From Psammoneis japonica (lineage: Eukaryota), in contig QPGO01000026.1 of NCBI GenBank assembly GCA_008632985.1, positions 124,001-188,000 of the forward strand: 64,000 nt of DNA, in the 5' to 3' direction. Made by a program: the position numbers and the translations under genes. Within the stretch, counting starts at the first letter, position 1. Every line of letters starts with the position of its first letter. Of the stretch, positions 5,011 through 48,992 are shown in pieces. Under the pieces are notes generated by a model that saw only the letters and a list, made by a program, of their open reading frames with translations, did no database searches and had not been told where the DNA came from.

Positions 5011-5916
5011 GGGACTCATTGGTGTGTTGTGCTGGACGGTGAAATTGGGCCGGATTGACACTGCAGTTGCCATGTCCCTCATGTCCTTGCACCCAGATGC
5101 GCCAAGAGTTGGTTGCTTGGACAAAGTGCTTCACATCTTTGCACATGTGAAAGCACATGCAAAGTCTGCAATGGGGTGTTTGATGACACCAAACCCACCT
5201 TTGACCCATCTTGCTTCCAGAAGTGCAGCTGATCAGAGCATTGTCCTGGGGCAGCCAAAGCCATGCCAAGGGATGCCCCCCAGGCATGGGGTGACAGCAT
5301 CAACACCACATGTTTTGTCGATGCAGATCATGCGCTGGTTGTCCTGTGACACGATGATGCCATGTGGGGATCATCATCTTTGTGCAACGGGCGCCAATTC
5401 TGTGGTGTGCTGCAAGCTTTGAATGACCGGGATCCCAATCAAGGGACCAGCAAATGTCTTCTGCAATGACAAGGCCATGTTCAAGAACTCAACACGGCCA
5501 ATGTTGCTTGCGTGGTTGGCATCAACAAATGATGCACAGACACCTTGACTTTGAGCCTGATCTGGCTGCTGCATTGTGCGACTTTGATCTAGATGCACCT
5601 GCACTTCTGCCACATTCCTGCCACTGCCATGCATCTTACCTTGCTCTGCTGCCACCAGGGCCACCATCACAACCACCTCCATGCATCCTGTCTCAGGCCT
5701 GAAGAACACAAGCAAGACCACCATTCCAGCACACAGTGCACAGCTGCTCCCATTCCTGAGAGCCAAAGTTGTGAGTTGGGTCAGATGCATTGATGCCATT
5801 CATCATGGTGGTGTGATTGGCACAACTTCATCCATGGCACATGCCATGTTTGCAACCAGACCTGCTGCTGTGACCACCATGATGGCCATGATGAAAGCTT
5901 GCACTTTTGAGCAAGA

Positions 5917-6195
5917 TGACAGGATTTGAACAGGATTTAGGCGCGCGCGACCATTTCGCGCACTATTTAGTTTGCCGCGCACAGTTTTGTGTGCTCTTTA
6001 GTTCCGCGCGTACGCGCGCAATGCAGTTTGCTTTCGAGCCACTCGGCTCACAAGAATGATGACAGAAGCCCAATCACACCGACTTGCACGTCTTTCGGCT
6101 CCTGCAACGGTCTCTGAGCGGAGACTCATCTGCCATTTGGACAGCAGCAAGGAGTTGTTGTTTGAATTCTTGCCATTTGCCTTCAATTTCTGTCA
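5917..6195 (+). repeat. 5' LTR (279 bp)
   Basis: Direct repeat of 10035-10312 with TG...CA inverted ends. Confidence 0.95.
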
Positions 6196-7136
6196 GACCA
6201 ACAGTCTTGCTCATTGTCAACCCATTGAGCAACCGCCCTCGTCGTCGTTGATTTACCGACAACGCTGTTTCAATTCTGCGTGGACCTCCGTACATGTTCT
6301 ACATGCATCGGCAAGTCTACGCGCATTCAATGCCAGGCATCGGCAGGAATTTAACGTCACCGTCAAGTCTCTTTACCGCTGGACATCTGGATTGATTGTG
6401 CCACCTTTCATTGCTGAAGACATGCATTCAACAGTTGCATCCAAGTCTGTCCTTGATCTAGACCCATCCCTTGACACACCCATTCATCAGTTGATGGTCA
6501 AGAACCCCACACATCCAAGGATCTTTGTCGCTGAAGACACACACATGTGCACATCTTCACGGCCAAGGACTTGAACCCATTTTTTGGACTGCGGCTTTGC
6601 TGCCACTCTACAAGCACACCGAGTCTGTTGCACCTGATCTACCCCGGACTGCTGGTGCTCTGCAGTTCCACTAGGTCCACGAGGACGACTGTGAGAGCAA
6701 GCAGCCGTGATTGCAGCCTGCGTTGGGGCGAGGGTGTTTTCCCGCGTTTGTTCGTTTGTCCACAGCGCCTGACGCCTGTGTCAACTGGCCAGCCTGATCG
6801 GGAAATCCAACCGACATAAAATGAGAACGGTTCGGGGGTCTTGTCCACCTCTAGTCAGCTTGCCTGCAGGGGTTTACAACCCGCTGCTCTGCTTGCAAGC
6901 AACCCAAAGCGCTGCTGGCTGCGGGTTCGGACATGCCGGCACAACTCTGCGGACCAGACAGGAAGTTTAGCACTTGACAACGAACGGGATGCCACAGCCC
7001 GGCGACTTCGGATTTTAAGATGGCTCAAGATTTCAAGTCAAGTCTTTTTCAAGCCAAGTTCCAAGTCAAAACTCCGAGTCAAGATCGTGCTCTAGATTGG
7101 CTCCTGTCTTTTGTTTCTACTGCACCGTCCTCCGTC

Positions 7137-9638
7137 ATGGTTCTCACGCGACAGCAACAAACCGAAAGCTTCAAATACATTCTAGGCACTGTGCTCAATC
7201 AAGATGATGACAGCCCTCTTCATTCTGCCCTGTCCATCAACGGGATTGAATCGTGTGAGGAATTGTTCACGTTCTTACCCACCCAAATTGACGCCCTCAC
7301 TTGCAGAGACGGCACCAATGTAGTGCCTTTGCCACGGACCCACAGAAACCTCCTAGCAGCTTTGATCAGCTTCTACTTTGTCAAAGTTTGCAACGGTGAT
7401 GATGTGACCAATGAACCCCAGTTGCTCACACCCGAGGAATTTCACAACTGCCGCCTTGGTCCGGACTACTTGACCTCTCTAGCCACTGGCGCAGCACCCT
7501 CCACACCTGTGCCGAGTCCCTTGCCATCCAAACCAGGTGAACCCAGTGCCATTTTGACACCAGCCTTGCACTGTACCGCCACTCAGGTGTCCCCCACAAG
7601 TGGTGTCAGTCGCGCCCCGCATGTCTTGACCAACCCGCCTGCAAGCAACCTCGGCCCAGTGCAGGATTGCAGCCCTTGCGCAGGCCCGCACTTCGAGACC
7701 AGTTGGGACACTCCACCCATGGCTTCCAAAGCTGCAGCCTTTGCACCCCGCAAACCACGTGCTGCCAACCTCCACGTGTCGACCGCTGTCACCCTTCACA
7801 GCCTTCATTTGGGAAGTGATGGAGATGACAACTTGCTTCTCGCATCTCCTGATGGGGAGCCTCCTTTTCCCATCATTGAATCTGTTCACAACAGTTCAAC
7901 TGGTTCATCAGATGGGGAGTTCAGGACATCCAAGCAGCTTCATTGTCTTTGGATCCCCCAAGTCTTGTACCTCGAGACTGGGCCTCCTGATCGGATGCCT
8001 CAAGTCTCGTGCCTCGAGACTGGGCCTCCTGGTTGGATCCCCCAAGTCTCGCACCTCGAGACTGGGCCTCCTGATCGGATGCCTCAAGTCTCGTACATCG
8101 AGACCAGGCCTCCTGATTGGATGCCTCAAGTCTCGTGCCTCGAGACTGGGCCTCCTGATCGGATGCCTCAAGTCTCGTACATCAAGACCAGGCCTCCTGA
8201 TTGGATCCCCCAAGTCTCGTACCTCGAGACTGGGCCTCCTGATTGGATGCCTCAAGTGTCGTACATCGAGACTGGGCCTCCTGATCGGATGCCTCAAGTC
8301 TCGTACATCGAGATTGGGCCTCCTGATTGGATGCCCCAAGTCTCGTGCCTTGAGACCAGGCCTCCCAACTGGACTCTCCACATGGCTTCCAAAGCTGCAG
8401 CCTTTGCACCCCGCAAACCACGTGCTGCCAACCTCCACGTGTCGACCGCTGTCACCCTTCACAGCCTTCATTTGGGAAGTGATGGAGATGACAACTTGCT
8501 TCTCGCATCTCCTGATGGGGAGCCTCCTTTTCCCATCATTGAATCTGTTCACAACAGTTCAACTGGTTCATCAGATGGGGAGTTCAGGACATCCAAGCAG
8601 CTTCATTGTCTTTGGATCCCCCAAGTCTCGTGCCTCGAGACTGGGCCTCCTGGTTGGATCCCCCAAGTCTCGCACCTCGAGACTGGGCCTCCTGATCGGA
8701 TGCCTCAAGTCTCGTACATCGAGACCAGGCCTCCTGATTGGATGCCTCAAGTCTCGTGCCTCGAGACTGGGCCTCCTGATCGGATGCCTCAAGTCTCGTG
8801 CCTCGAGACTGGGCCTCCTGGTTGGATCCCCCAAGTCTCGTACCTCGAGACCAGGCCTCCTGATTGGATGCCTCAAGTGTCGTACATCGAGACTGGGCCT
8901 CCTGATTGGATGCCTCAAGTCTCGTGCCTCGAGACCAGGCCTCCTGATTGGATGCCGTACATCGAGACTAGGCCTCCTGATTGGATGCCTCAAGTCTCAT
9001 GCCTTGAGACTGGGTCTCCTGATTGGATCCCCCAAGTCTCGTACCTCGAGACTGGGCCTCCTGATCGGATGCCTCAAGTCTCGTACATCGAGATTGGGCC
9101 TCCTGATTGGATGCCCCAAGTCTCGTGCCTTGAGACCAGGCCTCCCAACTGGACTCTCCACATCTCGTGCCTCGAGACCGGGCCTCCCAATTGGATCCTC
9201 TCCATGTCTCGCACCTCAAGACTCGGCCTCCGGATTGGATCCCTCAAGTCTTGCGCCATGAGACTCGGCCTCCTGATTGGATCCCCCAAGTCTCGCACCT
9301 CAAGACTTGGCCTCCTGATTGGATCCCCGAAGACTCGTGTCACAAGACTGGCAAGTCCCTTTGGATTCCAGAAGTCTTGCAGCACGGGACTGGTTGCCCC
9401 AACCAGACATCTGCAGTCTTGCACCACAAGATGTCTTGCTCCAATCCGATCCCCAAAGGCTTGCACCTTGAGACTCGTTTCTCCAATTGGATCAGTCTCT
9501 CAGGAGATGCAGCTGAGCTCGCAATCGGATTGGTGGAACACAGTGCCACCGCTTGTGCCTTTGAACTCATGCTTGCTCTGTTCCCCGAGTCGTGCAAACG
9601 CCATGCCACCCTGCACGAGCACTGCTCTGTTTTTCTAG
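7137..9638 (+). CDS. Gag-like N-terminus fused to a 13-aa tandem repeat (TE ORF, expression unknown)
   Basis: Open frame from ATG 7137 (also open from ATG 7020); repeat QVS[YCH][LI]ET[GR]PPD[WR][MI]P. Confidence 0.5.
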   Translation: MVLTRQQQTESFKYILGTVLNQDDDSPLHSALSINGIESCEELFTFLPTQIDALTCRDGTNVVPLPRTHRNLLAALISFYFVKVCNGDDVTNEPQLLTPEEFHNCRLGPDYLTSLATGAAPSTPVPSPLPSKPGEPSAILTPALHCTATQVSPTSGVSRAPHVLTNPPASNLGPVQDCSPCAGPHFETSWDTPPMASKAAAFAPRKPRAANLHVSTAVTLHSLHLGSDGDDNLLLASPDGEPPFPIIESVHNSSTGSSDGEFRTSKQLHCLWIPQVLYLETGPPDRMPQVSCLETGPPGWIPQVSHLETGPPDRMPQVSYIETRPPDWMPQVSCLETGPPDRMPQVSYIKTRPPDWIPQVSYLETGPPDWMPQVSYIETGPPDRMPQVSYIEIGPPDWMPQVSCLETRPPNWTLHMASKAAAFAPRKPRAANLHVSTAVTLHSLHLGSDGDDNLLLASPDGEPPFPIIESVHNSSTGSSDGEFRTSKQLHCLWIPQVSCLETGPPGWIPQVSHLETGPPDRMPQVSYIETRPPDWMPQVSCLETGPPDRMPQVSCLETGPPGWIPQVSYLETRPPDWMPQVSYIETGPPDWMPQVSCLETRPPDWMPYIETRPPDWMPQVSCLETGSPDWIPQVSYLETGPPDRMPQVSYIEIGPPDWMPQVSCLETRPPNWTLHISCLETGPPNWILSMSRTSRLGLRIGSLKSCAMRLGLLIGSPKSRTSRLGLLIGSPKTRVTRLASPFGFQKSCSTGLVAPTRHLQSCTTRCLAPIRSPKACTLRLVSPIGSVSQEMQLSSQSDWWNTVPPLVPLNSCLLCSPSRANAMPPCTSTALFF
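7950..9340 (+). repeat. 39-bp minisatellite in two blocks, part of a higher-order duplication with 663-bp offset
   Basis: Unit approximately CAAGTCTCGTACCTCGAGACTGGGCCTCCTGATTGGATGCCT; the ~230-bp spacer starting CATGGCTTCCAAAGCTGC occurs at 7718 and 8381. Confidence 0.95.
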
Positions 9639-10034
9639 CAGCAGCCCAGTGTGGCAACCGTTCCAAGAACCAACAGACGGCTGTCAGTCTTTACGACCTT
9701 CACTCAGGAAGTGAAGGCAATGTCAACTTGCCTGCATTGTCCTGCGATGTTGCCCCGCCGTTCAACATTGTCAACCAGACCAAGCTTTGCTCCTTCCATT
9801 GCAAGTGCGGATGTGGAATCCCACAAGATCCCAAGTGTGACTTGAGCTTTGAAAAGCACAACGGCATCTACAATTGGGGAGACGCAGCTCATCTTGACCC
9901 ACTTGGAGAATGCAATGTTGCTCCAGGATCTTGATCCTTGCTTGTCTCCTCATGTTTTGGTGCTTTGACTCCAAAGTTCTTTAGTCAATCCAAAGTCGAA
10001 TCTGTTTCTGTGACTCTTCAAGCAAACTGGGGAG

Positions 10035-10312
10035 TGACAGGATTTGAACAGGATTTAGGTGCGCGCAAAATGTCGCGTGCTGTTTAGTTTGCCGCGCACA
10101 GTTTTGTGTGCTCTTTAGTTCCGCGCGTACGCGCGCGATGTAGTTTGCTTTCGAGCCACTCGGCTCACAAGAATGACAACAGCAGCCCGATTGCACCGAC
10201 TTGCACGTCTTTCGGCTCCTGTGACGGTCTCTGAGCGGAGACTCATCTGCTGTTTAGACAGCAGCAAGGAGTTGTTGTTTGAATTCTTGCCATTTGCCTT
10301 CAATTTCTGTCA
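10035..10312 (+). repeat. 3' LTR (278 bp)
   Basis: Direct repeat of 5917-6195, preceded by a purine tract. Confidence 0.95.
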
Positions 10313-11679
10313 TGAGACACCAGGCTTCCCACTGAGCACATGCATGATGCAGACAAGAGACTTTGGACAAGAAATGTGCACATGCCCCCATGAAGATACG
10401 AGGGGGTGCCAGTTGCCAATTGCACTGCCATCGCTGCTGCCAAGTGGTTGTCATTGGCGCAGATCCCTCCCAACAAAGTTTGCTTCAACCTTCTGCCAAG
10501 CAGATCTGCATTCATTCAGATCCTTGTCCAAAGTGGCAAATGTGCTGCTGGCAAGTTTTCCCACTAACTTTTTGAATGGGAGTGTGCCTTCCTTCTTGTG
10601 GAGTGATGTTTTTTTGATGTTGCAATGTTCAGCCCAAGCCTGAAATGCTTTGTGTCCATTCTCCATCATGTCAAAAGGTTCAGCTCATGCCCTCACCCAG
10701 CCCACATTGTCAATCAAGTGCTCCTTCAACAATGACACACACGGCAATTGTCCTTGTCAAATGCATCTCCAAGGTGGGAGTGGCAGCTGGGGCAGCACAT
10801 GCCTTTCTTGATCATCAGCGAAGGGACCAGGAGGAGGCCCACACTTCACAACATGCTTTGAGCATGCCAGGCTTTTGTGCCAAGAGGCTCTAGAGCACAT
10901 CTTTGCACACATCAAAGTCCTTTTTGACATGCCCACCACTCTTGGCTGTTGCAGTCATTGCTGCATTGTTGAAGCCCGCCACAGCTGAAGGCTGGGTCCT
11001 CTTCAGTTGATCCTGACATCACCACACAATCACTTGAAGGTTCTCAATCTGGACTTTTTTTGTGTTGCAATGATGGGCTCATTGTGTCAGCTGACAAGTC
11101 AGGGTGATTGACCCTGTGTTGCTTCATGTTCATTGGTGCACACTTGGGCACAATGCCCAATGCTGCAGCCCCACCTCCAAGCCCACTGCACATGTGTGGA
11201 GATGGTGACCACAGACCACAATGCGAGCATTTTCCGTTTTGACCATTTTGCAGCTGACAGTTGCAGCATGACATGTGTCAGTGTGCATCAACTTGAACAC
11301 CGACGCATTCGCATCCATGGCGCGGTTGTGAAAAAAAGCATGGGAAACCATGTCATCTGTCTCACACACCCAACACAGACAGATGGACGGCAGAGAACTG
11401 TTTGGAATCGAGCCCATTCTCGAGTTTCGTCAATGGACCAGTTGCCGATTCAAAATGAGTTGCAGAGTAGACTTTTTGTAGTGACAGATTGCCTTGGCTT
11501 TCAAATTCCCAACTTTGGCTCTAGTTTACTCGCTAGCAGGTAAGCACTTCGGGCTAAATCAGACGATGGATCACGGCCGGACACATACAAATACAGACGG
11601 CGCGGTACCCAACGACTCTTTCGTCGGATGTCGATTGCCATTGACGTTGTTCCTCTTCCTATCAATGCATTACGACACC

Positions 11680-20929: not shown

Positions 20930-23900
20930 TAAGTTGGGGTTTCCAAAGGGGGGCTGCTTTTCAAATGACCTTCAACATCGGCACGCTCGCAGTGCTCGTT
21001 CTGCAGGAGGGTTCTGCTTTGTGTGACCATTTGCAATGGTTCCGCAAGAACTGACCCTCTCTGCAAGTCACATTCATATCTGAAGTGCGCCGCCAATGTT
21101 TTCTCTCACTGTGAAAGCACTCTGACGACCCGCCGACATCAACAACCACGCCTCATCAAATGATGACACCTGCATTAGACTGCTCCAGTGAGCAATGCAA
21201 TGCACCATCCAACAAAGTGTCACGTTGCTTTTGCATTGTCATTAGCTGCATAAAGTGGGATGCATTGCCTCAGCAAGACAAGCTGGTTGTGCCATGGTGA
21301 ACAAACAAGAAGCCCCATCATGAGCAATGAGATGACCATTGCAACAATTTTTAGGTGTTCTCTGTTCTGGATGTCACAATGTTGTCAGTTGTTACACCAA
21401 AGCTGTGTGTGTTGATGATCCATGGCAAAAACTGGCAGAGACGCATTGCTTCTTTCCAGATTGACATGCCATCTTGGGACTCCTCCATTTTTTCTCAACA
21501 AAAGTTTCCTGCAAAAAGAGAGATGTGTTGCACTCTAAAGACCTAACTCCCAACAGCAATTTTCCAATTTTCAACTCCACCAAGTGCGCTGATTCTTGCG
21601 CTGTGCATCAACATCCCTTTCATCACACACTGGAACAGAACTGCCTTTTTGGGATGATTGTTTGAGCACTTTGGTCTGCTTTCATTGTCCTGGTGACCAC
21701 AGCATGTGCATCTGTTGTCTGGGCTGTGTCCATCACAAACACAATTGCACCTGAGCAGCCCAACCACAGTTTCTCTCCTTGATCAGCACAAGAGCTGAGT
21801 TGGACAAAAGCCACAGGTTTTGCCACAGCAGAGCTTGAAATGACAAAGCAACACTCCCTCATGCTTGCTTGCATGGGTGTCATTGGCAAGCTCTGGTGTG
21901 TTGTTGGAGTGATTCATTTTGTGCAGAGAAAGGTGGACATGCCTTGCCGTTGACTGTTTGCATGGCAGCTGCCCTTGCACTGCATGTTTTTGGCTTTTTG
22001 GCAGGACAGCAGGACTCGCCAGCTGCACTTCTTGGACTCAAAATGAGACTGATGTCAAAAAGTCCACTCCTTCATGAACTCACACCAACATTTCTCTCCA
22101 TTTTAATCTCAAGACCTGGGCTTGCGGTGCTTTGGCGACCTGGATTCTGGTGTGAGAGACACAAATCAAGCATGAGCATCAGTGACAACAACACAACAAT
22201 TGCAAGACAGAATTGTTCAAAAACCCAGTGGGGCAGCCTCCAACAAATTGAGTGCACATGCAAGACAAAATGACAACATGAACCAAATTTTGTTGGAGGC
22301 AGGCACATCTGCATTGCAGTCACTTGCACCGCCAGAAGATGCCATTGCTGTTGTGATCGGAGAGTCATCAAGATTCCATTTTAGACAGAACCTGCAAGCT
22401 TTTCATCATGCTTTAGACAAGTGATGGAAAGCTTTAGGACAAATCCTTGCCTTTTGCCAGTGGAACATTCACTTGGTTTCACTTCTTGTTGCATGTTTTG
22501 GTTGTTGCCTTTCTGGGTGCCCTGTGTCTGCACTGGTGGGGTGCAACTGTCATCTAAGATTCTGTGATGCAGCTGGGTCAACGAGGACCAAGCCTGCTTC
22601 TGCCTTCCTGTTTGCCCCTTCCTGTGTGAAAGCAGTCCTCTTTGCATTTGGCACAATTTGGCTTCAACGGCAGCAAGTTGTCTCATGGAAGTTGGCCAGA
22701 GATTTGTTGGAAGGAGCAGCTGACGATGTCATTCCCCAACACTGATTTTGTGATGCACTCCCATGTGCAGCCATTGTCATTCATGTTTTTGTGCAAAACA
22801 CTCTTTTGGTGTGCACATTTGTCTGACCCTTGTCCACTTGACCATGCCTCATGTCATGGCCACTTGACCAAGAATGAGGGGCACATGCCCAATGTTTGTG
22901 CTCCCTTTTAATTGTGAGAGTCTGTGGTGTGGCATCAAGTGCCACCAGAAAGATGCCTCAAGAGGGGTCTGTCGCCACTTTTTAGATCATGATTTTCTGC
23001 CAAAAATCATTTTCCCCTTGCTTTTGTCACGACAACCATGACAACAGAAGATGACCCAGGTGAGCAAAAAGCAGCCCTTGGAGGTCACAAACTCTTGATT
23101 GATGTCAGTTCCTCACATGTCAGAGGACTCACATGCATCAAAAGTTTGTGACCTCCCTGTTGCATTTCTGAGAAAAACAGATTCAGGAACAAGCCTCAGC
23201 AGTTTCGATCAAATCATGGCCACAATTTAGATGCAAGAACTTTCAAACACATTGTCCATTTTATTGCACCTGTTGTCAACCATGTCAGCAGTCACTGTGT
23301 CATGGTGAGGTGTTTGAGACAAATCGCAAGCCTTCATCATGGTCGAGTTGACGGGGTGCCTGATTTTTTTGAGTTCTTGACGCGTGGTGCGTCACAAAGA
23401 TGTGCAAGCTGTTTTGGAACAACAAGCTATTTTGGAACAACAAAAGCAGGGGGTGACCCCAAATCAAGACTCAGACATGGTGCTGTGGGATGGGATCCAC
23501 CCCAGCTCAATTCAATTCAATCCTGTGTTTGCAGGATCCACCCCAGCAATGATCCTTTCTGACAAGAGAATGTGGGGTTTTTGTTGTGATCGCAGTGGGA
23601 TTGAATGGGTGGTCATGTGCGATTGGAAAAAGTGTTGGGGGAGGGAAGAAAGTTGCCTGGGGTGGGCTGTGTCATTGATTGACAGCTGTTGAAGCTTGAA
23701 AGGTTGGCGAAATCAAGGTGTTCAAGGGCGGAGAGAAAGGGAGTTGGGTCAAAGGAGGAGTTGTGTGCGGAGAAGGACAACAATGATGAAAATGGTGAAA
23801 ACCGAGGCAACGCGAAGGATGTGCCGCATGAAAAATGGCCAGTGTAGCGGCGGAGGGTCAGGAGGCCATTTCGGGAGGTGCAGCGAAGTGCTGCCGATGC

Positions 23901-28218: not shown

Positions 28219-28347
28219 TGCTCGCTGCTCACGCACAGCTCACGATCGTCAATCGAGCGCGAGAGGGGAAAAGGGTGCTCTTAAACCGATAACAGCTTAA
28301 TTGAATCGACTTGCTTGAAAGTGCAACGTTCACCTTTGTCAAACACA

Positions 28348-29487
28348 ATGCCCCTTAGTGACGAGTCACCGTCAAACCAGACCGGCGCTTCAACTAACGA
28401 AACTCCGTCCGCCACTTCGTCATCGACTCCTTCAACTGCAACGTCCCCATCGACTCCGTCCACGCCTGCGACTGACAAGACTGCATCGTCTTCGTCATCG
28501 CTCTCCGTTGTCTCATCGGATCCAATGGCTCGTCCTTGCACCGACAAGCACGTATGGGAAGGAATGGGCGGTGGCGGTGGAAACGTTGTGGCTCTTACAG
28601 GGGGCGGAGTTGCGACGTCGCAGGCGCAGGTCATCATGCCACACCCGGTTGTGCGAGCACGAGTTGTTGATTCAATGTCGCGCCCCCGCAAGAAGCACAA
28701 AATGTCAATTGTGGACGCCCTGAACCGGTTCAATTCCATGTCTCGTGAGGAGCAGATCGAGTCCTTGCCGTTTTGTCTCGTAGAATTGACGCTGGAAGAG
28801 TTCCACGCTCAATGTGATGCTCTAGAAGGTGCCGGATGCTCTCGCTGTGAGTTTCGAGACGGTGGAGCCTGGATTTACGAGCTGCCACATGCTGCTCATG
28901 ATCGCGCTGCGCAAGAAGTTATCAGAGAGCTTGATCGGCAGTTGGGCAATCGTAGCAGAGATTTCGCGATTGCGGCAAGCCCAAGATGTGATAACAATGA
29001 TGCCAACTGGTCCTATGAGCCGGATGGATCGCTGACAACCCGACGCTTCCGTCCAGGACGAGACAATGTCGACGCAGCCGACAGCTCGGGAAATCGATGG
29101 CCAAACCTCATTGTTGAAGTAGCATATTCAGAGTCGGAACAGCACGTTCGCGCCAAGGCCTTGGATTGGTTGAACACAGCTCAGAACCCAAACCATGGTG
29201 TTCAGCGGGTGATTGTCATCAAGATCGAATACCCAGGGCTTACTTATGGTCAAAGGACACTGAAAGCTTGGCGGTATGAGCGTGGTGCAGATAACAACCC
29301 AGTGCAGGAAATCGAGTTTAGAAACCACGGTCCAAACAACGGTGCCGCTCAAGCTGGAATTCCCGGGATGCAGCTCCATATCCCGGTTAGGAGTTTATAC
29401 CTCCCACTTCACTCGCCTGATGGTTTGGTTGAATCACTTTCTCTCGACTTATTCTACATTCGGACAATTATCGAGGAGGCATTTTAG
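28348..29487 (+). CDS. Uma2/DUF820-like PD-(D/E)XK endonuclease-fold protein with Ser/Thr-rich N-terminus
   Basis: PHAAHD, YEPDGSL, WPNLIVEVAYSES...KALDWL, VIVIKI; intact single-exon ORF. Confidence 0.75.
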   Translation: MPLSDESPSNQTGASTNETPSATSSSTPSTATSPSTPSTPATDKTASSSSSLSVVSSDPMARPCTDKHVWEGMGGGGGNVVALTGGGVATSQAQVIMPHPVVRARVVDSMSRPRKKHKMSIVDALNRFNSMSREEQIESLPFCLVELTLEEFHAQCDALEGAGCSRCEFRDGGAWIYELPHAAHDRAAQEVIRELDRQLGNRSRDFAIAASPRCDNNDANWSYEPDGSLTTRRFRPGRDNVDAADSSGNRWPNLIVEVAYSESEQHVRAKALDWLNTAQNPNHGVQRVIVIKIEYPGLTYGQRTLKAWRYERGADNNPVQEIEFRNHGPNNGAAQAGIPGMQLHIPVRSLYLPLHSPDGLVESLSLDLFYIRTIIEEAF

Positions 29488-30347
29488 ACAGAACTTGCAA
29501 GCGTTGCATCATGCTTTGGATAACTGATGGCGAGCTTTAGGACAAATCCTTGCTTGTTGCTACGTACAGTAGAGCGTTTATTTGGTTTCACTTCTTGTTG
29601 CGTATTTCGATTATTACCTCTGCCTAGTAGATGCCCTACATCTGCACCGGTAGGGTGCAACTATTATCTAAGATCCTGTCATTAAGGACCAAGCTTGCTT
29701 CGACGAAAACTTGCTCAGGTGCGTAACCTCGGATAAAAGAAACTGACTTTTGAGCCATCCTTGATGCTCAGAGGTGCATAAATCGTCTTGTCGTCCGCGC
29801 GTGTGCTTCCTTGCGCGCAATCAACGCGCGAACGACAAAACGATGAGGTGGCTCACGGACGTGGATCTGCTACGAAAGCCTCTGTCACGACGACGTGCTA
29901 TCCCCCATGAACAAATCCGTCTGTTTTCCGACCGATGGTGCCGCACACGGCACCATAATCGCCACCGTAGAACAATGCTGAATTTGCCGTAGAGAATCTT
30001 TCCGTTGGAACAATTTTCGATCGCTAAAACTGCCTCCGACAATTCACCTCCGAAGATGAGGTGATGCCTTCAGACATGCCCGAAAGCTGTGTCAATGAAG
30101 AACACTGTGTGCACGTTAGTTGCTCAGCTTCTGAGGAATGAATGCTGAATCAATTTTGAGCGGGGCGTTCTGTTTCGCCTGTCAAGGGAGACGAGTTCAG
30201 CGGTCTCGATTTCCGATCGCTTGCACTCGGCGTCTTGTGTCTTGCTCCGAGTGCCAAGCACCAAGTTGCATTTGGAACACAGAACAACAACAACAAGACA
30301 AGCCATTGCATCAAGGTTTTTGAAATCGCGAGTGCCTGAGTGTTGCC

Positions 30348-39398: not shown

Positions 39399-40630
39399 GT
39401 TTACACTTTACCGTCTTGTAAATCAAAATCACGTGGTGAAAGCATGGTGAAAAGTTTGAGGGGTGGAGAACGTCCACATGAGCAATGCATGCAAAGGTCA
39501 TGTAACTCGAAACTTTCGCTGGACAGAGTGGAGATGTCAAGGGGGGTCATCCCCGCGTTTGTCCTAAAATTGCCGTTGCATGCAGACCAACAACAATGAC
39601 ACAGCTGTTCAGGGGAAGACGCGTTCCAGCCCCAGGTGGGACTCCGTGTGACATTGGGCCCGTAGAATTCTACGTGCGAGCTCCGTAGTACGAGAATTTA
39701 ATTAATGGATATATTTATCTTCAACATCAAATAAACGGCCAAGTTTGTGGTACAATTATGCCTCTTACCACTCGACGTTTTTGCAAATGCACCTGCCCTA
39801 CGCGATTCTTAAGACATTATAGAATCGCGCTGTAACAAAAAATGTCAAAAGTTGTTGGACGGATCGCTCAATAAGTGTACCGTAAAATGGCACAAAATGT
39901 CAAAAAAATCACGTAGAAATCTACGTGCGCGACATACGACGTGATTCAAAAAACTATCGATGTCACAGTTCAGCAGTACGAGGTCCCACCTAGACCTGGA
40001 ACGCGTCGGAAAACTGTTCCTCAAATGACTGCCCAGGATCCTGAAGAGCACGTTGTCCAATGAAAGGATCACAAGTGCGCAGTGCTCTTCAGAGCACTGC
40101 TTGGCCAACTGTGCCATGCAACACCCCTCCCCCCAAGCATTTTCCAGCCCAAATTCCTGTCATTGAAAAATGTCAGCTCTGACATTTTCAACCCACACAC
40201 AGCAAAATGTGCTCTCTGGTGCAGCGGCGCCATTGTGAGCCACCTTTTTTCTTCACACCACCTGCCCGCTGGGCTCAAAAGAAGGCTGATCCAAGCTGAT
40301 TTGGCTCTGCACATTGTTTTTGCTTGCAGCACAGTTTTGCTGCAAAGCAACAGCCTCAAAGTCTTTTGAGAATGGAGTTGAGCCTCCTTGGCTGTGTCTG
40401 TTCCTGCACTGCACTGGGAAGGTGAGGCCACTGGCGCTGAAGGGAGAGTGTTTTTTTAAACTTTTGCCAGTGCTTCTCCATTTTTTGTTCTCATTGCATC
40501 AGTCTTTTGTTGCCTCATGTGTGCTGCAAGGCAACAAGAGACTGACGACAAAGTGCTCATGTTTAAAAAATGATGCAACGGTGGAGATTTTGTCATGGTG
40601 CAAAAAATGCTCCCTGTGCTTTGCGGCGAA

Positions 40631-40865
40631 AGTCATGACTCAATGTCATTCTGGTCACATCTCATGACTGCAACCCAGACTCAGCTTTTCTCCTCGAATC
40701 ATTTGGCTCAGCTCACAATCTGATTCAAAACCAAACCAATGACTTTCGTCACAATCTTTGGACAACAACTTTCAACCAGTGTCTGTTTGCTCTGCAGCCA
40801 TTCTCATTGCCACCAACCTCCAAGGTCTCATCCATCCTGCTGCGCTGCAGGACTGCATCTTGACT
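40631..40865 (+). repeat. 5' LTR (AGTCA...TGACT)
   Basis: Direct repeat of 47605-47839. Confidence 0.93.
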
Positions 40866-43800
40866 GGTTGTAGAGACCAAGCATTGCGAGTTGACGAGAG
40901 CTCCTGACCAAGTCATCATCACGGATGTGTTCAGTTTGATTTTGAAGCAAACCCGGGAAATTGCTTGAGCTTGCTTGCTTCTCCTGTCTTCATGCCAACA
41001 AGAACCTCCCATGCCACTCTCTCCACCAATGACAATGCCATGGCGCCAACGCTGCTGCCAGCGTTCCTCCACCTCCAACCAAGCCGTCACGTGGTGGCAC
41101 TCACCAAACCCACGGGGTTTGCATTGGTGGTTCCCAACTCAATGATGCGTGCGACCAAACCAACAACAGAACCCACCAACTCGCCTCTCAGCGCCATCAT
41201 CCCAAGGCTCTTGACTCAACAGAACAATCCCTCCGAGATCAACAAGCTTCTGCAATGACTTCCAAGTTCAACGGTCGACTTGAGATTTTGGACGGTTCCA
41301 TCAACGAGCTTGACAAGGACCACTTCGTCAAGACTGTTCGAGATCCAGCAGAAGCCCACGGTCAGCAGATGTTTTACCATGTCAAGAACAGCGACAACCA
41401 GGTTCAATGTTTCTTCGATCATCTGCACGAGTTCACTGTGACCGATCTCGTGAACAAGTGCAAGACCAGGAAAGCAGCCACCGATGACACCAAGTGCGAC
41501 AAGATCGAGCTTGACGATGTTGGGCTCTCTCAACTCCTCATTCAATTGAGAATCTCCAATGCCTTTTGCAAGAAAATCGAGACCAAGTTCAACCATCCCA
41601 AGGACTGCCACGACTGCCCAGGATCTGCCATGGTCATGATGGCTCTTGACACTTGCAATGCTGGCACTCTTGTGGATGTTGAGACAACTGAGAAGCAGCC
41701 AGAAGACCTTAGTTTGGTCAACTGTCCCGGCAAGGATTGCACGGACTTTGCTGCCGAGCTCTTTGCATCATGAAGATCATGCAGACCGACTGCACGCTTC
41801 CGGCAAACACAAGCTCCAAGCTGCTCCACAAGATTTCCAAGACGTCCTCTGAGTGCTTCAATCGGAAAGTCCACGGCAAGCTCAACGACATTAAAGCTGT
41901 GGAACGCAAGTGCCATCTCAAGAATCCTGCCGAAATCAAGTCTGACAGCGACCACAGCATGCTCGGACCGGTTGGCATCATCGCATGGATTCAAGAGCAA
42001 CACAACGAGCTCGTGAAGGATGGTGAGTGGCCTGCATTGGTTGCCAAGCTACCTGAGAGCAACCTTTCAACTGCAGAAAACCCTGGAAAGACGAGGCATT
42101 GTTTTGGCTGCGGTCTTGAGGGGTGTGCCAAGAAGACGTGCCCGAAGTGCAACGCCAAACCGCCGAGCGATGATCCTCCTCCAAATCCGCCACCTGCAGC
42201 CGACCCTTCCAAGAAGAAGCGGAGACCCGCCGCTGCCTGGCGCACTAAATTTGACGGAGAAACGAAGAAGGATGAGAATGGCAAGGAATGGAAGTGGTGT
42301 GCCACATGCATGGCAAAGGGTGCCAACAAACCTGGATTCTGCCAACGTCACTCCACCGCGGAACACACCGAGAACTTCAAAAGCACTCCCAAGGAAACTC
42401 CAGCGGGGAATTTGTCTTCCGTCACTGATCCGGATGGTGGTGTGCCCATGGGTCCGCCAGCTCAGACTGCCAAGGAACCAGAGGGAGACGAGTCCAATCT
42501 GGATGAGTTGGTTTTCACGGGAGTGTGGTGCGCGGCTACGGACGCCGTCACCGACCCGGATTTCTTCCCCAACCCTGTCACTGCGGCAATCATTGTTGCT
42601 CCGGCTTCTTTGGCCGAGAGGGAGAGCAACACAGTCGTTGGTGCTGAGGTGCTCTGCAACGAATCGAGCCCACCTGTGCTCACCTCAGTCGTGGCTCCAG
42701 TTGTGTCTCCCATCGTGGTTGAGACCATCACTCCCGAAGACGCCGATGACTTCTACAAACACTCCAACGCTTTATCTGCATTTGAAAACGAACCACCAAC
42801 TGTTGAGTTGTTTCTGGCCTTGAAGCTGCACTCTGTCAAGCATCCAGATGAGTTCTTTGACGCTCCCGCCAATTTGACGGACATGCTGTCAGACGACACC
42901 AAGTTAGACCTCATTCTTGAACACGAAGTACACTTTGAAGACGCTTGCCACAACTTGCCTCCGTGCGTTACACATCGTGGCTTCGACTTCTACGATCCAG
43001 AGACCCTGGATGCGGATGATTGTCACGAGGACGTCGAAGAAGGCCACACTTCGCATTGATCGTTTTTGGGACGGGTCAAGCTCTTCATCTTCTGGCTTGC
43101 TGCCATGTTTTGGGAAACGGCGCTGCATTTTTGTTTTGCTCCGATCCCTGGCATCCCTCGAGCTCTATGCCGCCAGTGCAAACTTCCAACCTTGCACGGG
43201 TTTCCAGCCTCCTGGATGGTCCTTTCCATTGCAGTCATGGTGTGGTCAGCAGTTTGCGCCGGTCACCAGCCCGAGTGTCCATTCTCGAACGTACCAAGCC
43301 GTTTTTCGACCGCTGGCTCTCAAGTCTACCATGTTGTGGAAGAGCCAGATGACCGGATAGTGTTGGATGTGGGGTCGCTGTTTGAACATCACAGGATCAA
43401 GGGAACGCAAGTGCTCACCGAGTTTGTTGTGCGCCATCCGTCACATGCACTGAGCACTCGTCTCAAGGCCTGCTGGGACACCCTAGAAGCAGTTGAACGG
43501 TCTGATGCGATAGACGAATCAGCCTTCTACGACACCCACGAGGAATTGGAACCTCTTGACGACCAGAAGCACTTCTTCGACGCTCTCGAGGATTTCAGCC
43601 CTGATTTCTTCCGGTTCGACGAGCTCTGTCTGCCCAACCACGTCGTGGACACTGCCCATTTTCAGGATCCTGTGGAACTGTTGGAAGACGCACGTGTTAG
43701 ACCAGTTGTCTACAACACCTCCACCATCCAACTGCTCACTGGACAATCTCAAGCCAACCTTCTTGCATCTGATCCGCAGGCACTCATTGGTCTGTCGGAC

Positions 43801-46800
43801 GGGGCCCTCACGGTCATCATGGACACTGGTGCAATGCCAGCTGTGACCCCTGACAAAGATGATTTCACGGGACCTGTGACTGTTCCCAAGAAACCCTTAC
43901 AGACAAATGGGATTGCCAACGGTCTTGCCATTCAAGGCACCGGTCCGGTTGTGTGGGTGTTCACAATGCCAAGCAGTGCCACCATCCAACTAAACACCAT
44001 GGTGCACCACGTCCCTGGAGCCCGTCAACGCCCACTTTCGCCTCAACGCCTCTTTGACAAAGAGAAGGGTGTGCGTGGGAAGTGTGAGGGCGATGAACGA
44101 ACTTTCTGTTCACACATTGACGGGACAGGCAAGTTGGTTGTGCCACATCACCAATCAAGCCACTCACCCATTGCGTCAATGACCAAGGGTGCATGGGAAG
44201 CTCCTCAAGTGAATCCACAAATCCTCAACAAGGAGAACCAGAATCTCACGGCAGGTCAGAAGCTTCTTAGCAAAATGCACGCCCATTTTGGTCATTTCAA
44301 CTTTGGCCGCGTCCAAGCACTTCTCCACGCAGCTCCGTTCCTGTCGAATTGTTTCAAGTCCGCAGCAAAGTGTGACCACCCAAGATGTGAAGCGTGCGAA
44401 TGTGCCAAAGGACATGGACGCTCTCTTGGATCTACCCACAAGTCGACAGTCCCTGAATGTGATGGGGCCCTTCGAGCTGACCATCTTCGACTGGGTCAGG
44501 CTGTCAGCGTTGATCATTTTGAGTCACGTCTTTTAGGCCGAACCTTTGACTCATGTGGTGAAGCCACGTCCAAGCAATTCAAGGGCAGCTGCATCTTTGT
44601 CAACCACGCCTCTGGCTGCATCCAGGTCAAGCATCAACTGGGTTTCTCCGCTGTTGAGATGACACAAGCAAAGCAAGTGTGTGAGAAACATGCTTTGGAC
44701 CACGGTGTCATTGTCCAAGAATTTCTTGCCGATGGTGGCGCTTTCAAGGCCAACGCTTTTGCACAACATGTCTGAGAGCATGAACAACATCTCCACTTTT
44801 GTGGAACTGACGCCCATCATCAGAACGGCATTGCAGAGTGGGGCATCCGAAGCATCTCCAACATGGCGAGAGCAGTGTTGCTTCATGTGTCAATCCACTG
44901 GAAGGGTGGGATTGACAGCTCCCTGTGGCCCATGGCTATTTCTCATGCCACGCACATCTGCAATGTCACCCCAAATTCCAAGGGACATTGCCCAGCGGAC
45001 ACATTCACCGGCTCGACAGTGCCTCAACATCGCTTGCGGGACATTCACACATGGGGATGCCCAGCGTGCGTGCTTGATCCGAAACTTGCCTCTGGCAAGA
45101 AACTCCCACGTTGGGAACCACGCACTTGTCGTGCTTTGTTTGTGGGACTCAGTGACATCCATTCCAGTGAGGTTCCTTTGGTCCTCAATCTTCAAACTGG
45201 AAGCGTTGCTCCTCAGTGTCATGTGGTCTTTGACAATCTCTTCACTGCGCACCATCAATCAAGAGGGAGACGGATCCACCTGATCACTGGGAACACTCAT
45301 GTCTCAACCAATCAACATGCATCCCTCTGGAGAAGGACCAGACCGCCCACCTGCACAATGAGTGGCTCACCCCTCCAGAGCGTCAATGCAAAGAGTGAGA
45401 ACTGGCCAGAGAGACACGCATTCAAGGCCATTTTGAGCCCACTCCATCAATTGCTGTGCCGGATCCACCCATTTCTCGCGACAACGTTTCCAATCAAGAC
45501 ATGCCTGCGACTCAACAACCAATGCCACCAGTCCCACCCATGACTCAAATCCCCACAGACTCTGCAGATTTCACGCCAATTCAGCCACCTGAACCTCAAG
45601 ACAGTGACGAACTTCCGCCACCCGAAGCGCCAACGGAACCACCAGCTCCTCCCCCAGTCAAGACACCTCCTGTGACAAATCCAGAGGGAGCATCAGGGCT
45701 GCGATGGTCTTCAAGGTCAACCAAAGGACAGTTCAACTCTGCGAACTTCATTGATGAAGTCCACCTTAGCTCCGTTGAGGAAACACCCATGCCGATCGGA
45801 CACCAAGCTCAGCCAGCTCATCTGGCGACTCTTGAGACGGATTTGGACAGTGGTGCCATCAATGTTGATGATCCCTGAGCCTGCACAGCTAGCAAGAAGA
45901 CCAAGGACCCTGACATGCCTTTGCTGCACAATGCTCTGAAAGGTCCAGACGCCAAAGAATGGATTGAGGCGATGAAAATTGAAGTCAACGCACTCATGCA
46001 TCGTCGAGCCTGGAAAGCAGTCAAGCGTCAGCCGCACATGAATGTACTTCCAGGTGCATGGGCACTTAAACTCAAGAGACTCCCCCATGGAACCCCTCTG
46101 AAGTGCAAGGCCCGACACTGCGTCTGCGGTGATTTGCAGAAAGAGGGAGTGGATCATTTTGAAACCCACGCACCGGTCGTGCAATGGTCCAGCACCCGAC
46201 TCATGCTCACTGCAGCATTGAAGGAAGGATGAACTGCACGTCAGGTGGACTGCACCACAGCCTTCTGCCAAGCTGATGTCGCCGAGGAAGTTCACATGAC
46301 ACCGCCGAAGGGTTTTGCGCCAAGGTCGGGACTCAATGCGGTCCTCAAACTTTTGAAAGGACTGCACAGCCCAAAGCAGTCTCCAAAGGGCTTCTACGAG
46401 AAGTTACGAGCTGGTTTAGTTGAGCGCGGATGGGTGCCTTCAGCTGTAGACCCCTGTTTGCATTTCAAAGAGGGTGTGATGTGTGTGGTGCACGTCGACG
46501 ACACAGCATTTGCTGGAGCTTCAGCTGAAGCTCTAGAAGAAGAAATTCGCAAGTTAGGAGTCTCCGACGACGAGCATTGACACGCATTTGAACTCAAAGA
46601 CGAAGGAGAAGTCGGCAACTTTCTCGGCATCAAGATCAAAAAGCTCTCTGAGGGTTGATTCCTGCTCACTCAACCTGATCTAATTGACAAGGTCCTGCGC
46701 ACCGCACAGATGCAGGATTGCAATGGAGCATCTGCTCCAGCTCTACCTGTGGCTGTTGGTGCCGACACGGATGGCCTGCTGCCTTTTGATGAACCCTGCG

Positions 46801-47604
46801 ATTGTTGCTCAGTTGTTGGAATGTTGATGTGCTTGGCAGCGAACAGCCGGCCAGACATTGCGCATGCTACACATCAAGTGGCTCGATTTTTGTTTGCACC
46901 CCGAGCATCCCACGCTGCTGCAGTGAAGCGGATGCTCCAATGCCTCAAAGCTGCTGCTGCTGAAGGTCTCATTCTCAAGCCTGCGCAAGATCATCGAGTT
47001 GATTGTTGCGTCGATTCTGACTTCGCGGGGTTGTTTGGTGTGGAAGATGGTCAGGACCCAGTTTCTGTCAAGTCCAGGACTGGATGCCTTGTCTGCTGCG
47101 CCGGCTGCCCGCTTGTCTGGGTGTCCAAGCTGCAGACTCTTGTGGCATTGTCGACTGTGGAAGCGAAATGTGTCGCACTTTCTCAAGCCATGCGCGATCT
47201 CATCCCCATTTGTGAAGTTCTCAAGGAGCTCAACCACCAGGCACTCGGAAGTCTGACCACCAAAACCTTGTCACGACTCACACCAAGGCTTTTGAGCTTG
47301 CAAACCAAGGCACCGATGATTCGCCTGTTGAGCAGAATGTCCCACCTGTGTCCATTGTGTGCAAAGATAACTCTGCGTGCCTCAAGTTTGCACGCATGCC
47401 CAAATTGTCTCCGTGAACCAAGCACACTGGTGTTCCGCACCATTGGTTTAGGACCAAAGTCGAACAATTGGAGATCAACATCCAACCTGTCAGCACACTG
47501 GAGCAACTGGCCAATCAATTCATGAAGGGACTACGGACCGATGCATTCTGTGCAGCTGGGCTGGCTCTTGTGGGCTGGCAAGCTCTCTCAGTGTTGAGAG
47601 GGAG

Positions 47605-47839
47605 AGTCATGACTCAACGTCATTCTGGTTGCATCTCACGACTGCAACCCAGACTCAGCTTTTCTTCTCAAATTGTTTGGCTCAGCTCACAATCCAATTC
47701 AAAACCAAACCAACGACTTTCGTCACAATCTTTAGACAACGACTTTCAACCAGCGTCTGTTCACTCTGTTGCCATTCTTGTTGCTGCCAACCTCCGAGGT
47801 CTCATCCATCCCACTGCACTGCAGGACTGCATCTCGACT
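47605..47839 (+). repeat. 3' LTR (AGTCA...CGACT)
   Basis: Direct repeat of 40631-40865, immediately after the PPT. Confidence 0.93.
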
Positions 47840-48450
47840 GCAAAGCGTTGGCTTGACAGATTTTGCAGATTGGTTGAGGGTTGCACATCAATTGCACGCA
47901 CTTTCAGACCATGTGTGTCCAATTTCACACAAAAGGCAGGGCCACAAATGTCCAGCCAAAAGGAAGAGGCATGCGGAATGACCATTGATGTGACAGCTTT
48001 AGCAAGTGCTTTTCTGTTTTCACAGACAGTCTCACATCTCACAAAGTTTGTGCAAGAAGAAAGAAAAGAAAAGCAATTGCAACACAACTTTGCCATGAAA
48101 ATGCTGCCGCACATGACAGCAGCAATGGCTGGCACTCCTGCGTGCATGTCTCTGCCACCGTGACAACAAAGTGGGATTGGCTTCACTGGCAGCACAATGA
48201 GGAAAAGCAACAAAGAGAACAACCCCATGAAAGCCAGCCTCCACCACCACACCAAGTCAGATGCTGCTGCCCAGAACCAACAAAATGGCTCATTTTCCTG
48301 AGAGTGCTCCAGGATTGCCGGCAGCAGATGAAGCAGTTGGGGAAGGTGGAGAAGGAGAAGGAATCATGGCTGCATGTTTTTCTGCATGCAAGCGGTGTGT
48401 TTGTTTGACACATCTCACTGTGGGACGCTGCATTTCTCTGTTTTATTTAG

Positions 48451-48845
48451 TTGCAATTTGCGTGTGCCCATTGAATGCCAAGGAATCCACACTGGAGAGC
48501 GCCACATCAAATGCAGCCAGTCGCACATGGGAAGCTCTTTGCAGTGCAACCGGGTTGCTCAAATTGCCAACAACACAGAGTCTTTGCCAGAACAAGCTGC
48601 TGGCCAAAGCTTTTTCAGCTTTGACAAAACCTTTGGAGAAGAATCTACAACACAGCAGGTTTGTGATGGTGCAGCCAAGCCCATTGTCCAGGGAGCAGTT
48701 TCAGGAATCAATGCAGCCATCTTTGCATGCGGACAAGCCTCTGGTGGTGAGACCCACATGATGCAGGATTCCAGGCCCATTGAAGAAGGCTGCAACTTGA
48801 CTGGTGGAGGAATTGCACATGTGGCCAGCAAGCTGGTTTTCGATT
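48451..48845 (+). pseudogene. Captured N-terminal kinesin motor fragment (kinesin-7/CENP-E-like)
   Basis: VAICVCPLN (cf. VxxRxRPLN), FSFDKTFGEESTTQQVCD, GINAAIFACGQASGGETHMM (cf. P-loop IFAYGQTxSGKTYTM), GGIAH. Confidence 0.85.
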
Positions 48846-48992
48846 TTCAGGTGTTGCAATGCTGATGTTTATTCACCCTTTTTTCTTGACAACATTCATG
48901 CAGTTGCCAATGCGTTTGAGCATTTGGAACAACACTGACACCAACAATTCAAGTTGAGTCATCTGGCTGTAAATCAGAAATGCACAAGTGGC

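Follow-up and report, generated by a model that had tools for sequence, protein, structure and literature searches.

Why do the two long terminal repeats (LTRs) of a single retrotransposon differ mainly at TA, CG, CA and TG steps, and did these differences arise before or after the element had entered the chromosome? This question is raised by a 64,000-nucleotide stretch of Psammoneis japonica DNA (assembly GCA_008632985.1, contig QPGO01000026.1, positions 124,001 to 188,000 of the forward strand), which is referred to here in its full length as the window and whose own coordinates are used throughout. The window contains a 4.4-kb LTR element that spans positions 5912-10317 from flank to flank (element 1) and another LTR element at 40.6-47.8 kb (element 2). 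A preliminary description of the window had proposed that the LTR pairs, together with the duplicated flanks of element 1, record mutation on both strands of integrated DNA. Our analysis leads to a reading that we regard as likely, namely that CpG and TpA in repeat-rich DNA were converted on both strands to CpA/TpG after integration, and that element 1 is a non-autonomous LTR retrotransposon.

The LTRs of element 1 (5917-6195 and 10035-10312; pair 1) are 92.5% identical. Over 278 aligned positions they show 20 mismatches, 17 transitions and 3 transversions, and all 17 transitions are located in pyrimidine-purine (Y-R) dinucleotides, which account for 148 of the 278 positions (binomial P = 2e-5). 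Counted as dinucleotides, the differences comprise five CA/TG, three CA/CG, one CG/TG, two TA/TG and one CA/TA. The five CA/TG doublets (5961-2, 6060-1, 6075-6, 6105-6 and 6134-5) compare with a mean of 0.96 in 20,000 simulations that place 17 transitions at random on Y-R positions (P = 0.0003). The LTRs of element 2 (pair 2) present a similar picture, with 27 transitions and one transversion over 239 aligned positions, 25 of the 27 transitions in Y-R dinucleotides (P = 5e-7), and differences that comprise seven CA/TG doublets, five CG/TG, four CA/CG and one TA/TG; here the simulated mean for the doublets is 2.8 (P = 0.003). The preliminary description had reported such steps as the main differences, with about five reciprocal doublets in pair 1 and about seven in the second element, and these counts are reproduced, including the two doublets that it quoted as examples.

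Raw divergence between the LTRs is 7.2% in pair 1 and 11.7% in pair 2, and at positions outside Y-R dinucleotides it is 0/130 and 2/128, respectively. It follows from this gap that LTR-divergence dating is strongly inflated here, as had been suspected, and that ages would be overestimated several-fold under one constant rate.

The direction of change at element 1 was read from other copies of its family. These copies are very abundant in one public run (run X1), in which 4210 contigs aligned on positions 5400-7700; the run possibly derives from the same sample as the window and is therefore not independent of it. The family majority was counted over these short contigs with weighting by depth, and the counts given below concern the 40 of 93 variable places that are listed. 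At 34 or more of these places, the family majority has another letter than the window copy. A majority CG reads TG seven times and CA six times in the window, so that 13 of 105 CG are lost, and a majority TA reads TG five times and CA twice, corresponding to 7 of 35 TA lost. The other changes are two to TA, one from CA to CG, one from TG to CA, four transitions outside Y-R dinucleotides (at about 898 positions) and five transversions. Compared with the non-YR rate by Fisher tests, the losses yield P = 2e-6 for TA and P = 3e-7 for CG. The loss per site is no lower for TA than for CG, and either loss exceeds the rate of other transitions about 15- to 25-fold. Loss of TA also differs by context, affecting four of six TA within ATA/TAT and 3 of 29 in other contexts (P = 0.009).

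A second line of evidence comes from the codons of element 2. When its frame containing the reverse transcriptase (RT) was compared with 33 homologues, none of 17 conserved Tyr was found to be kept: eight are Cys, five are His and four are other residues, whereas the homologues keep 11-17 of the same columns. The Tyr content of this frame is 0.3%, as compared to 2.7-4.5% in copia homologues, and the YVDD of the homologue consensus reads HVDD. Conserved Arg residues are kept at 15 of 23 columns, and the replacements by Cys (two), Trp (one), Gln (one) and a stop (one) are those expected of CpG decay. At the 35 conserved His, Cys, Gln and Trp columns of the copia frame, no CA/TG flip was observed.

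The same replacements are found outside the LTR elements. A kinesin motor-domain fragment, located in a block that is among the most depleted of the window, has FACGQ for the kinesin sequence FAYGQ, VC for VY and no Tyr at all; it is a putative pseudogene or captured gene piece. Six frames from depleted blocks (defined below), i.e., the copia gag-integrase frame, the RT-containing frame, the open reading frames (ORFs) 3565-4935, 30324-31541 and 59738-61534, and the kinesin fragment, contain 0-0.5% Tyr, 3.6-5.9% His and 3.8-6.8% Cys, as compared to 2.0-4.6% Tyr, 1.4-3.5% His and 1.1-1.8% Cys in four frames from host-gene blocks. A repeat of about 200 bp, present once in a depleted block and once in a block of normal composition, provides a direct comparison of the two settings. 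The depleted-block copy has TG or CA where the other copy has TA at a ratio of 13:1 (P = 0.002), and TG or CA where the other copy has CG at a ratio of 6:0.

Both products of TA loss are present, TG and CA, at eight and five Tyr codons and at nine and four sites of the paralogue comparison, which argues that both strands were struck, as had been proposed. The changes also differ between the two LTRs of one element and between the two flank copies. They depend on chromosomal location, following the composition of the block, and thus act on integrated DNA rather than by one-stranded RNA editing; this part of the preliminary description stands as well. Its proposal that TA differences exceed the background is likewise borne out, and by a wide margin, by the loss of 7 of 35 TA in the family comparison, by the complete loss of the 17 conserved Tyr and by the 13:1 ratio of the paralogues. 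The outcome that it had named as its refutation, with reciprocal sites of CG origin throughout and TA differences at background frequency, is not what is seen.

The composition of the window as a whole bears the corresponding footprint. Observed/expected (o/e) ratios over its full length are 0.25 for TA, 0.65 for CG, 1.48 for CA and 1.51 for TG. In blocks with host genes (about 11-21 kb, with copine and lipase; 29-30 kb; and 36-40 kb), TA o/e is 0.45-0.66 and CG o/e about 0.9-1.25, while the repeat-like remainder has ratios of 0.03-0.3 for TA, 0.1-0.8 for CG and 1.4-2.1 for CA/TG. A depleted block was defined as a one-kb block with TA o/e below 0.35, and 46 of the 64 blocks in the window belong to this class. 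TA, CG, CA and TG contribute 0.77%, 3.35%, 10.32% and 9.73% of the dinucleotides in the depleted blocks, and 3.71%, 5.49%, 7.51% and 7.73% in the other 18 blocks, among them those of the copine and lipase genes, with sums of 24.2% and 24.4%, respectively. Relative to the other blocks, the depleted blocks are lower by 2.9 points in TA and 2.1 points in CG, and higher by 2.8 points in CA and 2.0 points in TG. Equal Y-R sums, in which the loss of TA and CG is matched by the gain of CA and TG, are the trace that interconversion among the Y-R dinucleotides leaves. From one one-kb block to the next, TA rises and falls with CG (Spearman 0.77), and CA/TG is inversely related to TA (-0.81) and to CG (-0.86). 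The GC content is 49.8% in depleted and 47.4% in the other blocks. Among the TA that survive in depleted blocks across the window, TTAG/CTAA and TTAA are enriched 2.8-fold, and ATAC and ATAT are depleted 5- to 9-fold.

Within pair 1, the family majority allows individual sites to be polarised. At 6139, TA is found in 98% of the family and in the right LTR, and TG in the left LTR, which marks a TA loss after insertion. CG was lost in the left LTR at 6020 and 6072, and in the right LTR at 5942, the latter judged from the absence of a difference among the places listed. At 5961-2, CG is the family sequence (99% G at 5962, together with a consensus of the loose ends of 15 contigs), and the LTRs read CA on the left and TG on the right. 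Here a CG ancestor was struck on opposite strands in the two LTRs, as had been proposed. The preliminary description had suggested that the family would assign each reciprocal site to a TA or CG ancestor. This succeeded for 5961-2, but not for the other four doublets of pair 1, at which the majority appears to be CA or TG rather than TA or CG among the places listed; more than about 59% of the family depth seems to carry the CA or TG of the left LTR at these sites.

Reciprocal CA/TG sites are most likely hypermutable CG or TA ancestors that were struck in both copies on opposite strands. This double-hit reading fits pair 2, where one shared CG, seven losses in the left LTR only and two in the right LTR only imply about 24 ancestral CG, and where a double-hit model with CG ancestors expects 7.0 reciprocal sites, the number observed. 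In pair 1, which shares 19 CG and 4 TA and shows four and one single losses, respectively, it requires strong differences in mutability from site to site. We lean towards the view that the doublets of pair 1 are double hits on highly mutable TA that have been lost in nearly all copies. The family mixtures in run X1 at 6959-60 (about 31% CA, 59% TG and 10% TA) and at 7021-2 (45% CA, 44% TA and 11% TG) look exactly as a decaying, highly mutable TA would, and the TA that survive in the LTR of element 1 lie four times in TTTAG and once in GTAC, with a fifth TTTAG, at 6139, surviving only in the right LTR. Conversion by another copy is an unlikely source of the pair 1 doublets, since the CG that lie between them have been preserved. 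In pair 1, the polarised single C:G-to-T:A changes also sort by strand, with G-to-A at four of four sites in the left LTR and C-to-T at three of three in the right LTR (Fisher P = 0.03), and four of the five doublets as well as the flanks have CA on the left and TG on the right. No strand coherence is seen in pair 2.

The flanks of element 1, CAAGA and TGAGA, are identical at three of five bases, and their sole difference is a CA/TG doublet at the first two bases, as had been described. This doublet supports a real 5-bp target-site duplication (TSD) that would have been altered after insertion. The DNA upstream of element 1 belongs to a depleted block with a TA o/e of 0.10. Among the joints and loose ends listed for run X1, none occurs at 5916/5917, which is evidence neither for nor against an empty site.

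Several points weigh against the reading that TpA and CpG decayed together after integration. The whole analysis concerns one 64-kb window, and the enzymatic mechanism is inferred throughout. The family majority may be biased if most copies have decayed, it stems from a run that is possibly the window's own sample, and it covers the 40 listed of 93 variable places. The TA differences of pair 1, which had been taken for TA decay, are of mixed direction: 6139 is a loss, but 5965 polarises as a TA gain in the left LTR (98% G in the family) and 6024 is apparently a TA gain in the right LTR, as deduced from the lack of a variable place there among those listed. From these gains it follows that C-to-T change at CpA also occurs. 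At 6060-1, 6075-6, 6105-6 and 6134-5, the listed places show no difference between the family and the left LTR, and uniform, independent double hits predict only about 0.11 reciprocal sites in pair 1, where five are observed. Finally, the TSD is based on a match at three of five bases and one doublet.

Could the pattern be due to decay of methylated CpG and neutral drift alone, with TA differences at background level and low TpA as a property of the elements? CpG loss is clear, both from the 13 of 105 CG lost among the places listed and from the CpG o/e of 0.1-0.8 in repeat blocks; moreover, a model restricted to CG ancestors yields the seven reciprocal sites of pair 2, and the only pair 1 reciprocal site that was traced has a CG ancestor. 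However, the loss of TA at 7 of 35 sites, as compared to 4 of about 898 for non-YR transitions, is left unexplained by such a process, and the same is true for the conserved Tyr columns, 13 of which are now Cys or His in an element whose homologues are normal in Tyr, for the 13:1 asymmetry between the paralogues and for a TA deficit that is balanced by the gain in CA/TG. An explanation by CpG alone is already contradicted by these observations, and we consider it very improbable. The changes could also have occurred before or during integration, by RNA editing or by deamination of single-stranded cDNA or of a gapped intermediate, so that LTRs and flanks would have been unequal by the time that repair was complete. 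In the textbook mechanism of retroviral integration, the gapped intermediate exposes a single bottom strand at the left flank copy and a single top strand at the right one. Its deamination would give CA on the left and TG on the right, as seen, although this outcome had a prior chance of 50%, and the strand coherence of pair 1, with four G-to-A changes on the left and three C-to-T changes on the right (P = 0.03), points in the same direction. Pair 2 lacks this coherence, and RNA editing is one-stranded, yet Tyr has changed to Cys eight times and to His five times, and both products are also present in the LTRs. In addition, the kinesin fragment has decayed in the same way, the paralogue decays according to its block, and the decayed blocks extend contiguously beyond single elements into the flank upstream of element 1 (TA o/e 0.10). 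A copia that has lost all of its conserved Tyr and has HVDD for YVDD would hardly be an active source of new copies. Changes at the integration stage are therefore quite unlikely.

A different account of the reciprocal sites invokes single events, in which one copy flips CA to TG or vice versa in tandem, for example by a deaminase that changes the C as well as the A of a CpA on the same strand. It would explain why four of the five pair 1 sites show no difference from the left LTR among the places listed, in which case the right LTR would hold three CA-to-TG flips and one TG-to-CA flip; it would also account for the CA versus TG difference of the flanks, and for doublets that exceed a uniform Y-R model in both pairs while double hits predict about 0.1 sites in pair 1. 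Flips of this kind should, however, exchange His with Cys or Gln with Trp, and this is seen at none of the 35 conserved copia columns; the ancestor at 5961-2 is CG, and 6959-60 and 7021-2 mix CA, TG and TA as a decaying TA would. Furthermore, TA mutability varies between sites, with TTAG/CTAA the most enriched among the survivors, which could rescue the double hits, and the family comparison is based on the 40 listed of 93 places. Single flips thus retain a small chance of being the correct account. A sequencing or assembly artefact, finally, would mean that modified bases in repeats had been miscalled systematically. Basecalling errors at such bases can be specific to a motif and restricted to repeats, and the pattern described here has both properties. 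Yet, a 1005-nt contig of run X1 with a single-copy depth of 61, which reaches from the left flank 69 bases into the left LTR of element 1, is identical to the window over 5400-5985 (586/586), and 831 of the 4210 X1 contigs are at least 99% alike, with the reservation that X1 is possibly the same sample. Saturation at the codon level and the coexistence of TA, TG and CA variants of one site among family contigs also argue against miscalls, and an artefact is extremely improbable.

Decay after integration can be described as follows. In repeat-like blocks, to which the decay is restricted, CpG is converted to TpG/CpA and TpA to TpG/CpA, the latter preferentially in an A-T-A/T-A-T context. The CpG part would reflect deamination of 5-methylcytosine in methylated transposons, and the TpA part a distinct process that is targeted and turns A:T into G:C in chromosomal DNA. 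Deamination of adenine to inosine would be the most probable route for TpA, with a mispairing modification of thymine as an alternative.

In the literature searched, no diatom report of a TpA/CpG-to-CpA/TpG signature was found, and the sole counterpart found for its TpA part is a preprint on the chlorarachniophyte Bigelowiella natans (10.64898/2026.01.13.699255), the accessible text of which describes TpA to TpG/CpA hypermutation of integrated viral DNA. According to this text, transposon-related coding sequences are among the depleted sequences, de novo mutations appear in mutation-accumulation lines with a frequency of about 1e-7 per site and generation, and an ADAT2-like adenine deaminase is proposed by the authors. 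Both cases share the conversion of TpA to TpG/CpA on both strands and its restriction to foreign or repeat-like regions. In contrast to B. natans as presented there, the targets here extend to LTR retrotransposons and a fragment of a host gene, homology marks the host as a diatom-like stramenopile, and the depletion is deeper, with o/e down to 0.03-0.1 as compared to 0.45 in their nucleocytoplasmic large DNA virus (NCLDV) region. CpG loss accompanies TA loss here (13 versus 7 among the places listed), whereas the B. natans changes are almost purely A/T to G/C, and the evidence here consists of historical sequence, whereas B. natans offers de novo mutations. A dedicated genome defence of diatoms, or of this one at any rate, that tags chromosomal repeats and foreign DNA and edits the adenine of TpA to guanine on both strands in parallel with methyl-CpG decay, and that would be the same system as in B. 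natans, old and widespread among stramenopiles, alveolates and rhizarians (SAR), is a tentative proposal that we would sooner doubt than accept.

Repeat-induced point mutation (RIP) of fungi resembles the process described here in being directed at repeats, in inactivating transposons by transitions on both strands and in leaving a dinucleotide footprint; the DNMT4 enzymes of diatoms are relatives of fungal RID (PMC9998398). RIP converts CpA/TpG to TpA and lowers the GC content (PMC2621366, RIPCAL, accessible part), whereas here TpA is lost (o/e 0.03-0.3), CpA/TpG is gained and decayed blocks have a slightly raised GC content. In addition, the loss of TA creates no new stop codon, so that frames stay open. 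Fungal RIP is ruled out as a candidate by the loss rather than creation of TpA and by the GC content of 49.8% versus 47.4%. Decay of methylated CpG, as in vertebrates, shares the conversion of CpG to TpG/CpA on both strands, the low CpG o/e in repeats as compared to about 1 in gene blocks, and a reciprocal TG/CA site from one CG ancestor (5961-2). According to the accessible text of PMC9998398, diatom transposons are CpG-methylated. In such decay, TpA is untouched, and it cannot explain the loss of Tyr codons or the 13:1 asymmetry.

ADAR- and APOBEC-type deaminases have RNA or single-stranded cDNA as their substrate and leave changes on one strand. They resemble the present case in the transition hypermutation of retroelements, but here both strands are affected, as are the flanks and the non-transposon DNA of the same blocks. 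Editing of sense-strand RNA is ruled out by the presence of both products at Tyr codons and in the LTRs. The B. natans preprint (10.64898/2026.01.13.699255) cites a preference of ADAR for a U on the 5' side of the edited A.

The features discussed here are compiled in Table 1. The LTRs of element 1 start with TGACAG and finish with CTGTCA in both copies, i.e., with TG..CA ends that form short terminal inverted repeats, and a short purine run, GGGGAG, lies immediately 5' of the 3' LTR. The internal region has an open frame at 6978-9638 with its first Met at 7017 and 886 codons; Tyr accounts for 1.3-1.7% of the N-terminal part of this ORF. None of the internal frames tested, including that of 886 amino acids, matched a Pfam family, an RT or an integrase, and the ORF is without similarity to the gag region of element 2 (best E = 2.2). 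Element 1 is filed as a non-autonomous LTR element because RVT_2, integrase and other Pfam matches are lacking; by structural definition it is thus a non-autonomous LTR retrotransposon, which on sequence grounds is not callable as copia. The wording "second copia" in the preliminary description, which implies that element 1 is a copia as well, is therefore not sustained. By its domain matches, element 2 is a degenerate Ty1/copia element. Its gag-integrase frame (41713-45543) contains two in-frame stops and an SH3_retrovirus match with E = 2.4e-4, below the curated cut-off, and its RT-containing frame (45501-47600) contains six stops and an RVT_2 match with E = 1.5e-29. The element has 51 homologues, the best named of which is from Fragilaria crotonensis.

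Table 1. Coordinates of the two LTR elements, the paralogous repeat pair and the kinesin fragment in the window.
Feature	Position	Strand	Basis
Left TSD copy of element 1, putative, 5 bp (CAAGA)	5912..5916	.	Direct sequence reading
5' LTR of element 1, 279 bp	5917..6195	+	Direct repeat with 10035-10312
Internal region of element 1	6196..10034	+	Open frame and 42-bp tandem array
3' LTR of element 1	10035..10312	+	Direct repeat with 5917-6195
Right TSD copy of element 1, putative, 5 bp (TGAGA)	10313..10317	.	Direct sequence reading
Repeat copy in TA/CG-depleted block	22377..22568	+	Paralogue alignment
Paralogue of 22377-22568 in block of normal composition	29480..29682	+	Paralogue alignment
Left LTR of element 2, ends as aligned	40628..40866	+	88% identical to 47602-47840
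Internal region of element 2, degenerate Ty1/copia	40867..47601	+	RVT_2 and SH3_retrovirus matches
Right LTR of element 2, ends as aligned	47602..47840	+	Alignment with 40628-40866
Kinesin motor-domain fragment	48332..48862	+	Pfam Kinesin, E = 1.1e-13; block TA o/e 0.06, CG o/e 0.18

The frame of element 1 contains a tandem array at about 7951-9362, in which a unit of 42 bp (14 amino acids) with a consensus like PQVSxLETGPPDWM and no Pfam match is present in about 27 copies. The region of the array also shows a higher-order duplication, in which 663 bp at 7710-8372 are repeated at 8373-9035 with 97% identity. One column pair of the array reads TA in 11 copies, TG in 11, CA in four and CG in one, and another reads TG in 17, CA in seven and CG in one; these columns were left out of the polarisation, because array copies are non-independent. 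In run X1, the summed word depth is about 7e5 at 6093-6169 within the LTR, as compared to about 60 in the unique flank, and depth over the 3' part of the LTR is several-fold that over its remainder. A metagenome scan with a degenerate 24-letter LTR pattern yielded three loci whose likeness to the LTR is limited to about 27 bases, and no family copies.

The window is rich in stop-free frames because the scarcity of TA leaves few TAA and TAG stops: 127 such frames of at least 130 amino acids are present, and of 94 that were scanned only two have a Pfam match. A dispersed repeat pair (30378-31469 and 49023-50038), about 72% identical and depleted in both copies, shows 24 CA/TG doublets, two shared CG and no shared TA. 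Positions 28285-29484 hold a 400-codon frame with a Uma2 domain (putative restriction endonuclease, E = 2.9e-9) in a small normal block between two depleted blocks, and a weak match to a Plavaka transposase (E = 2.9e-4, below the curated cut-off) is located on the minus strand at 61524-62114 in a depleted block. For the copine gene (12.6-14.8 kb), the best matches that carry a name are from diatoms, with 45-57% identity; by homology, the host is a diatom or closely related to diatoms. A dinoflagellate origin, which the low TpA might suggest, is rejected: a spliced-leader motif has seven matches with up to three mismatches, as compared to 4.08 expected and with 14 of 100 shuffles reaching seven, and the copine homologues indicate diatoms. 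An Rfam scan of the window yielded no match.

Decay after integration has practical consequences. LTR pairs, flanks and paralogues in different compartments would serve as a natural clock, showing that the process acts on integrated DNA. Diatom LTR elements have been dated with one constant rate, and deamination, dinucleotides and methylation are unmentioned in the accessible text of that study (bioRxiv 10.1101/2025.10.24.684338); dating of this kind would overestimate ages several-fold here. For gene finders, long stop-free frames that are dead repeats could pass as genes. If a dedicated defence of the kind considered above exists, it would erase Tyr codons and catalytic motifs and leave the reading frames open. 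A second case, in a stramenopile, would suggest that such hypermutation is a widespread defence rather than a curiosity.

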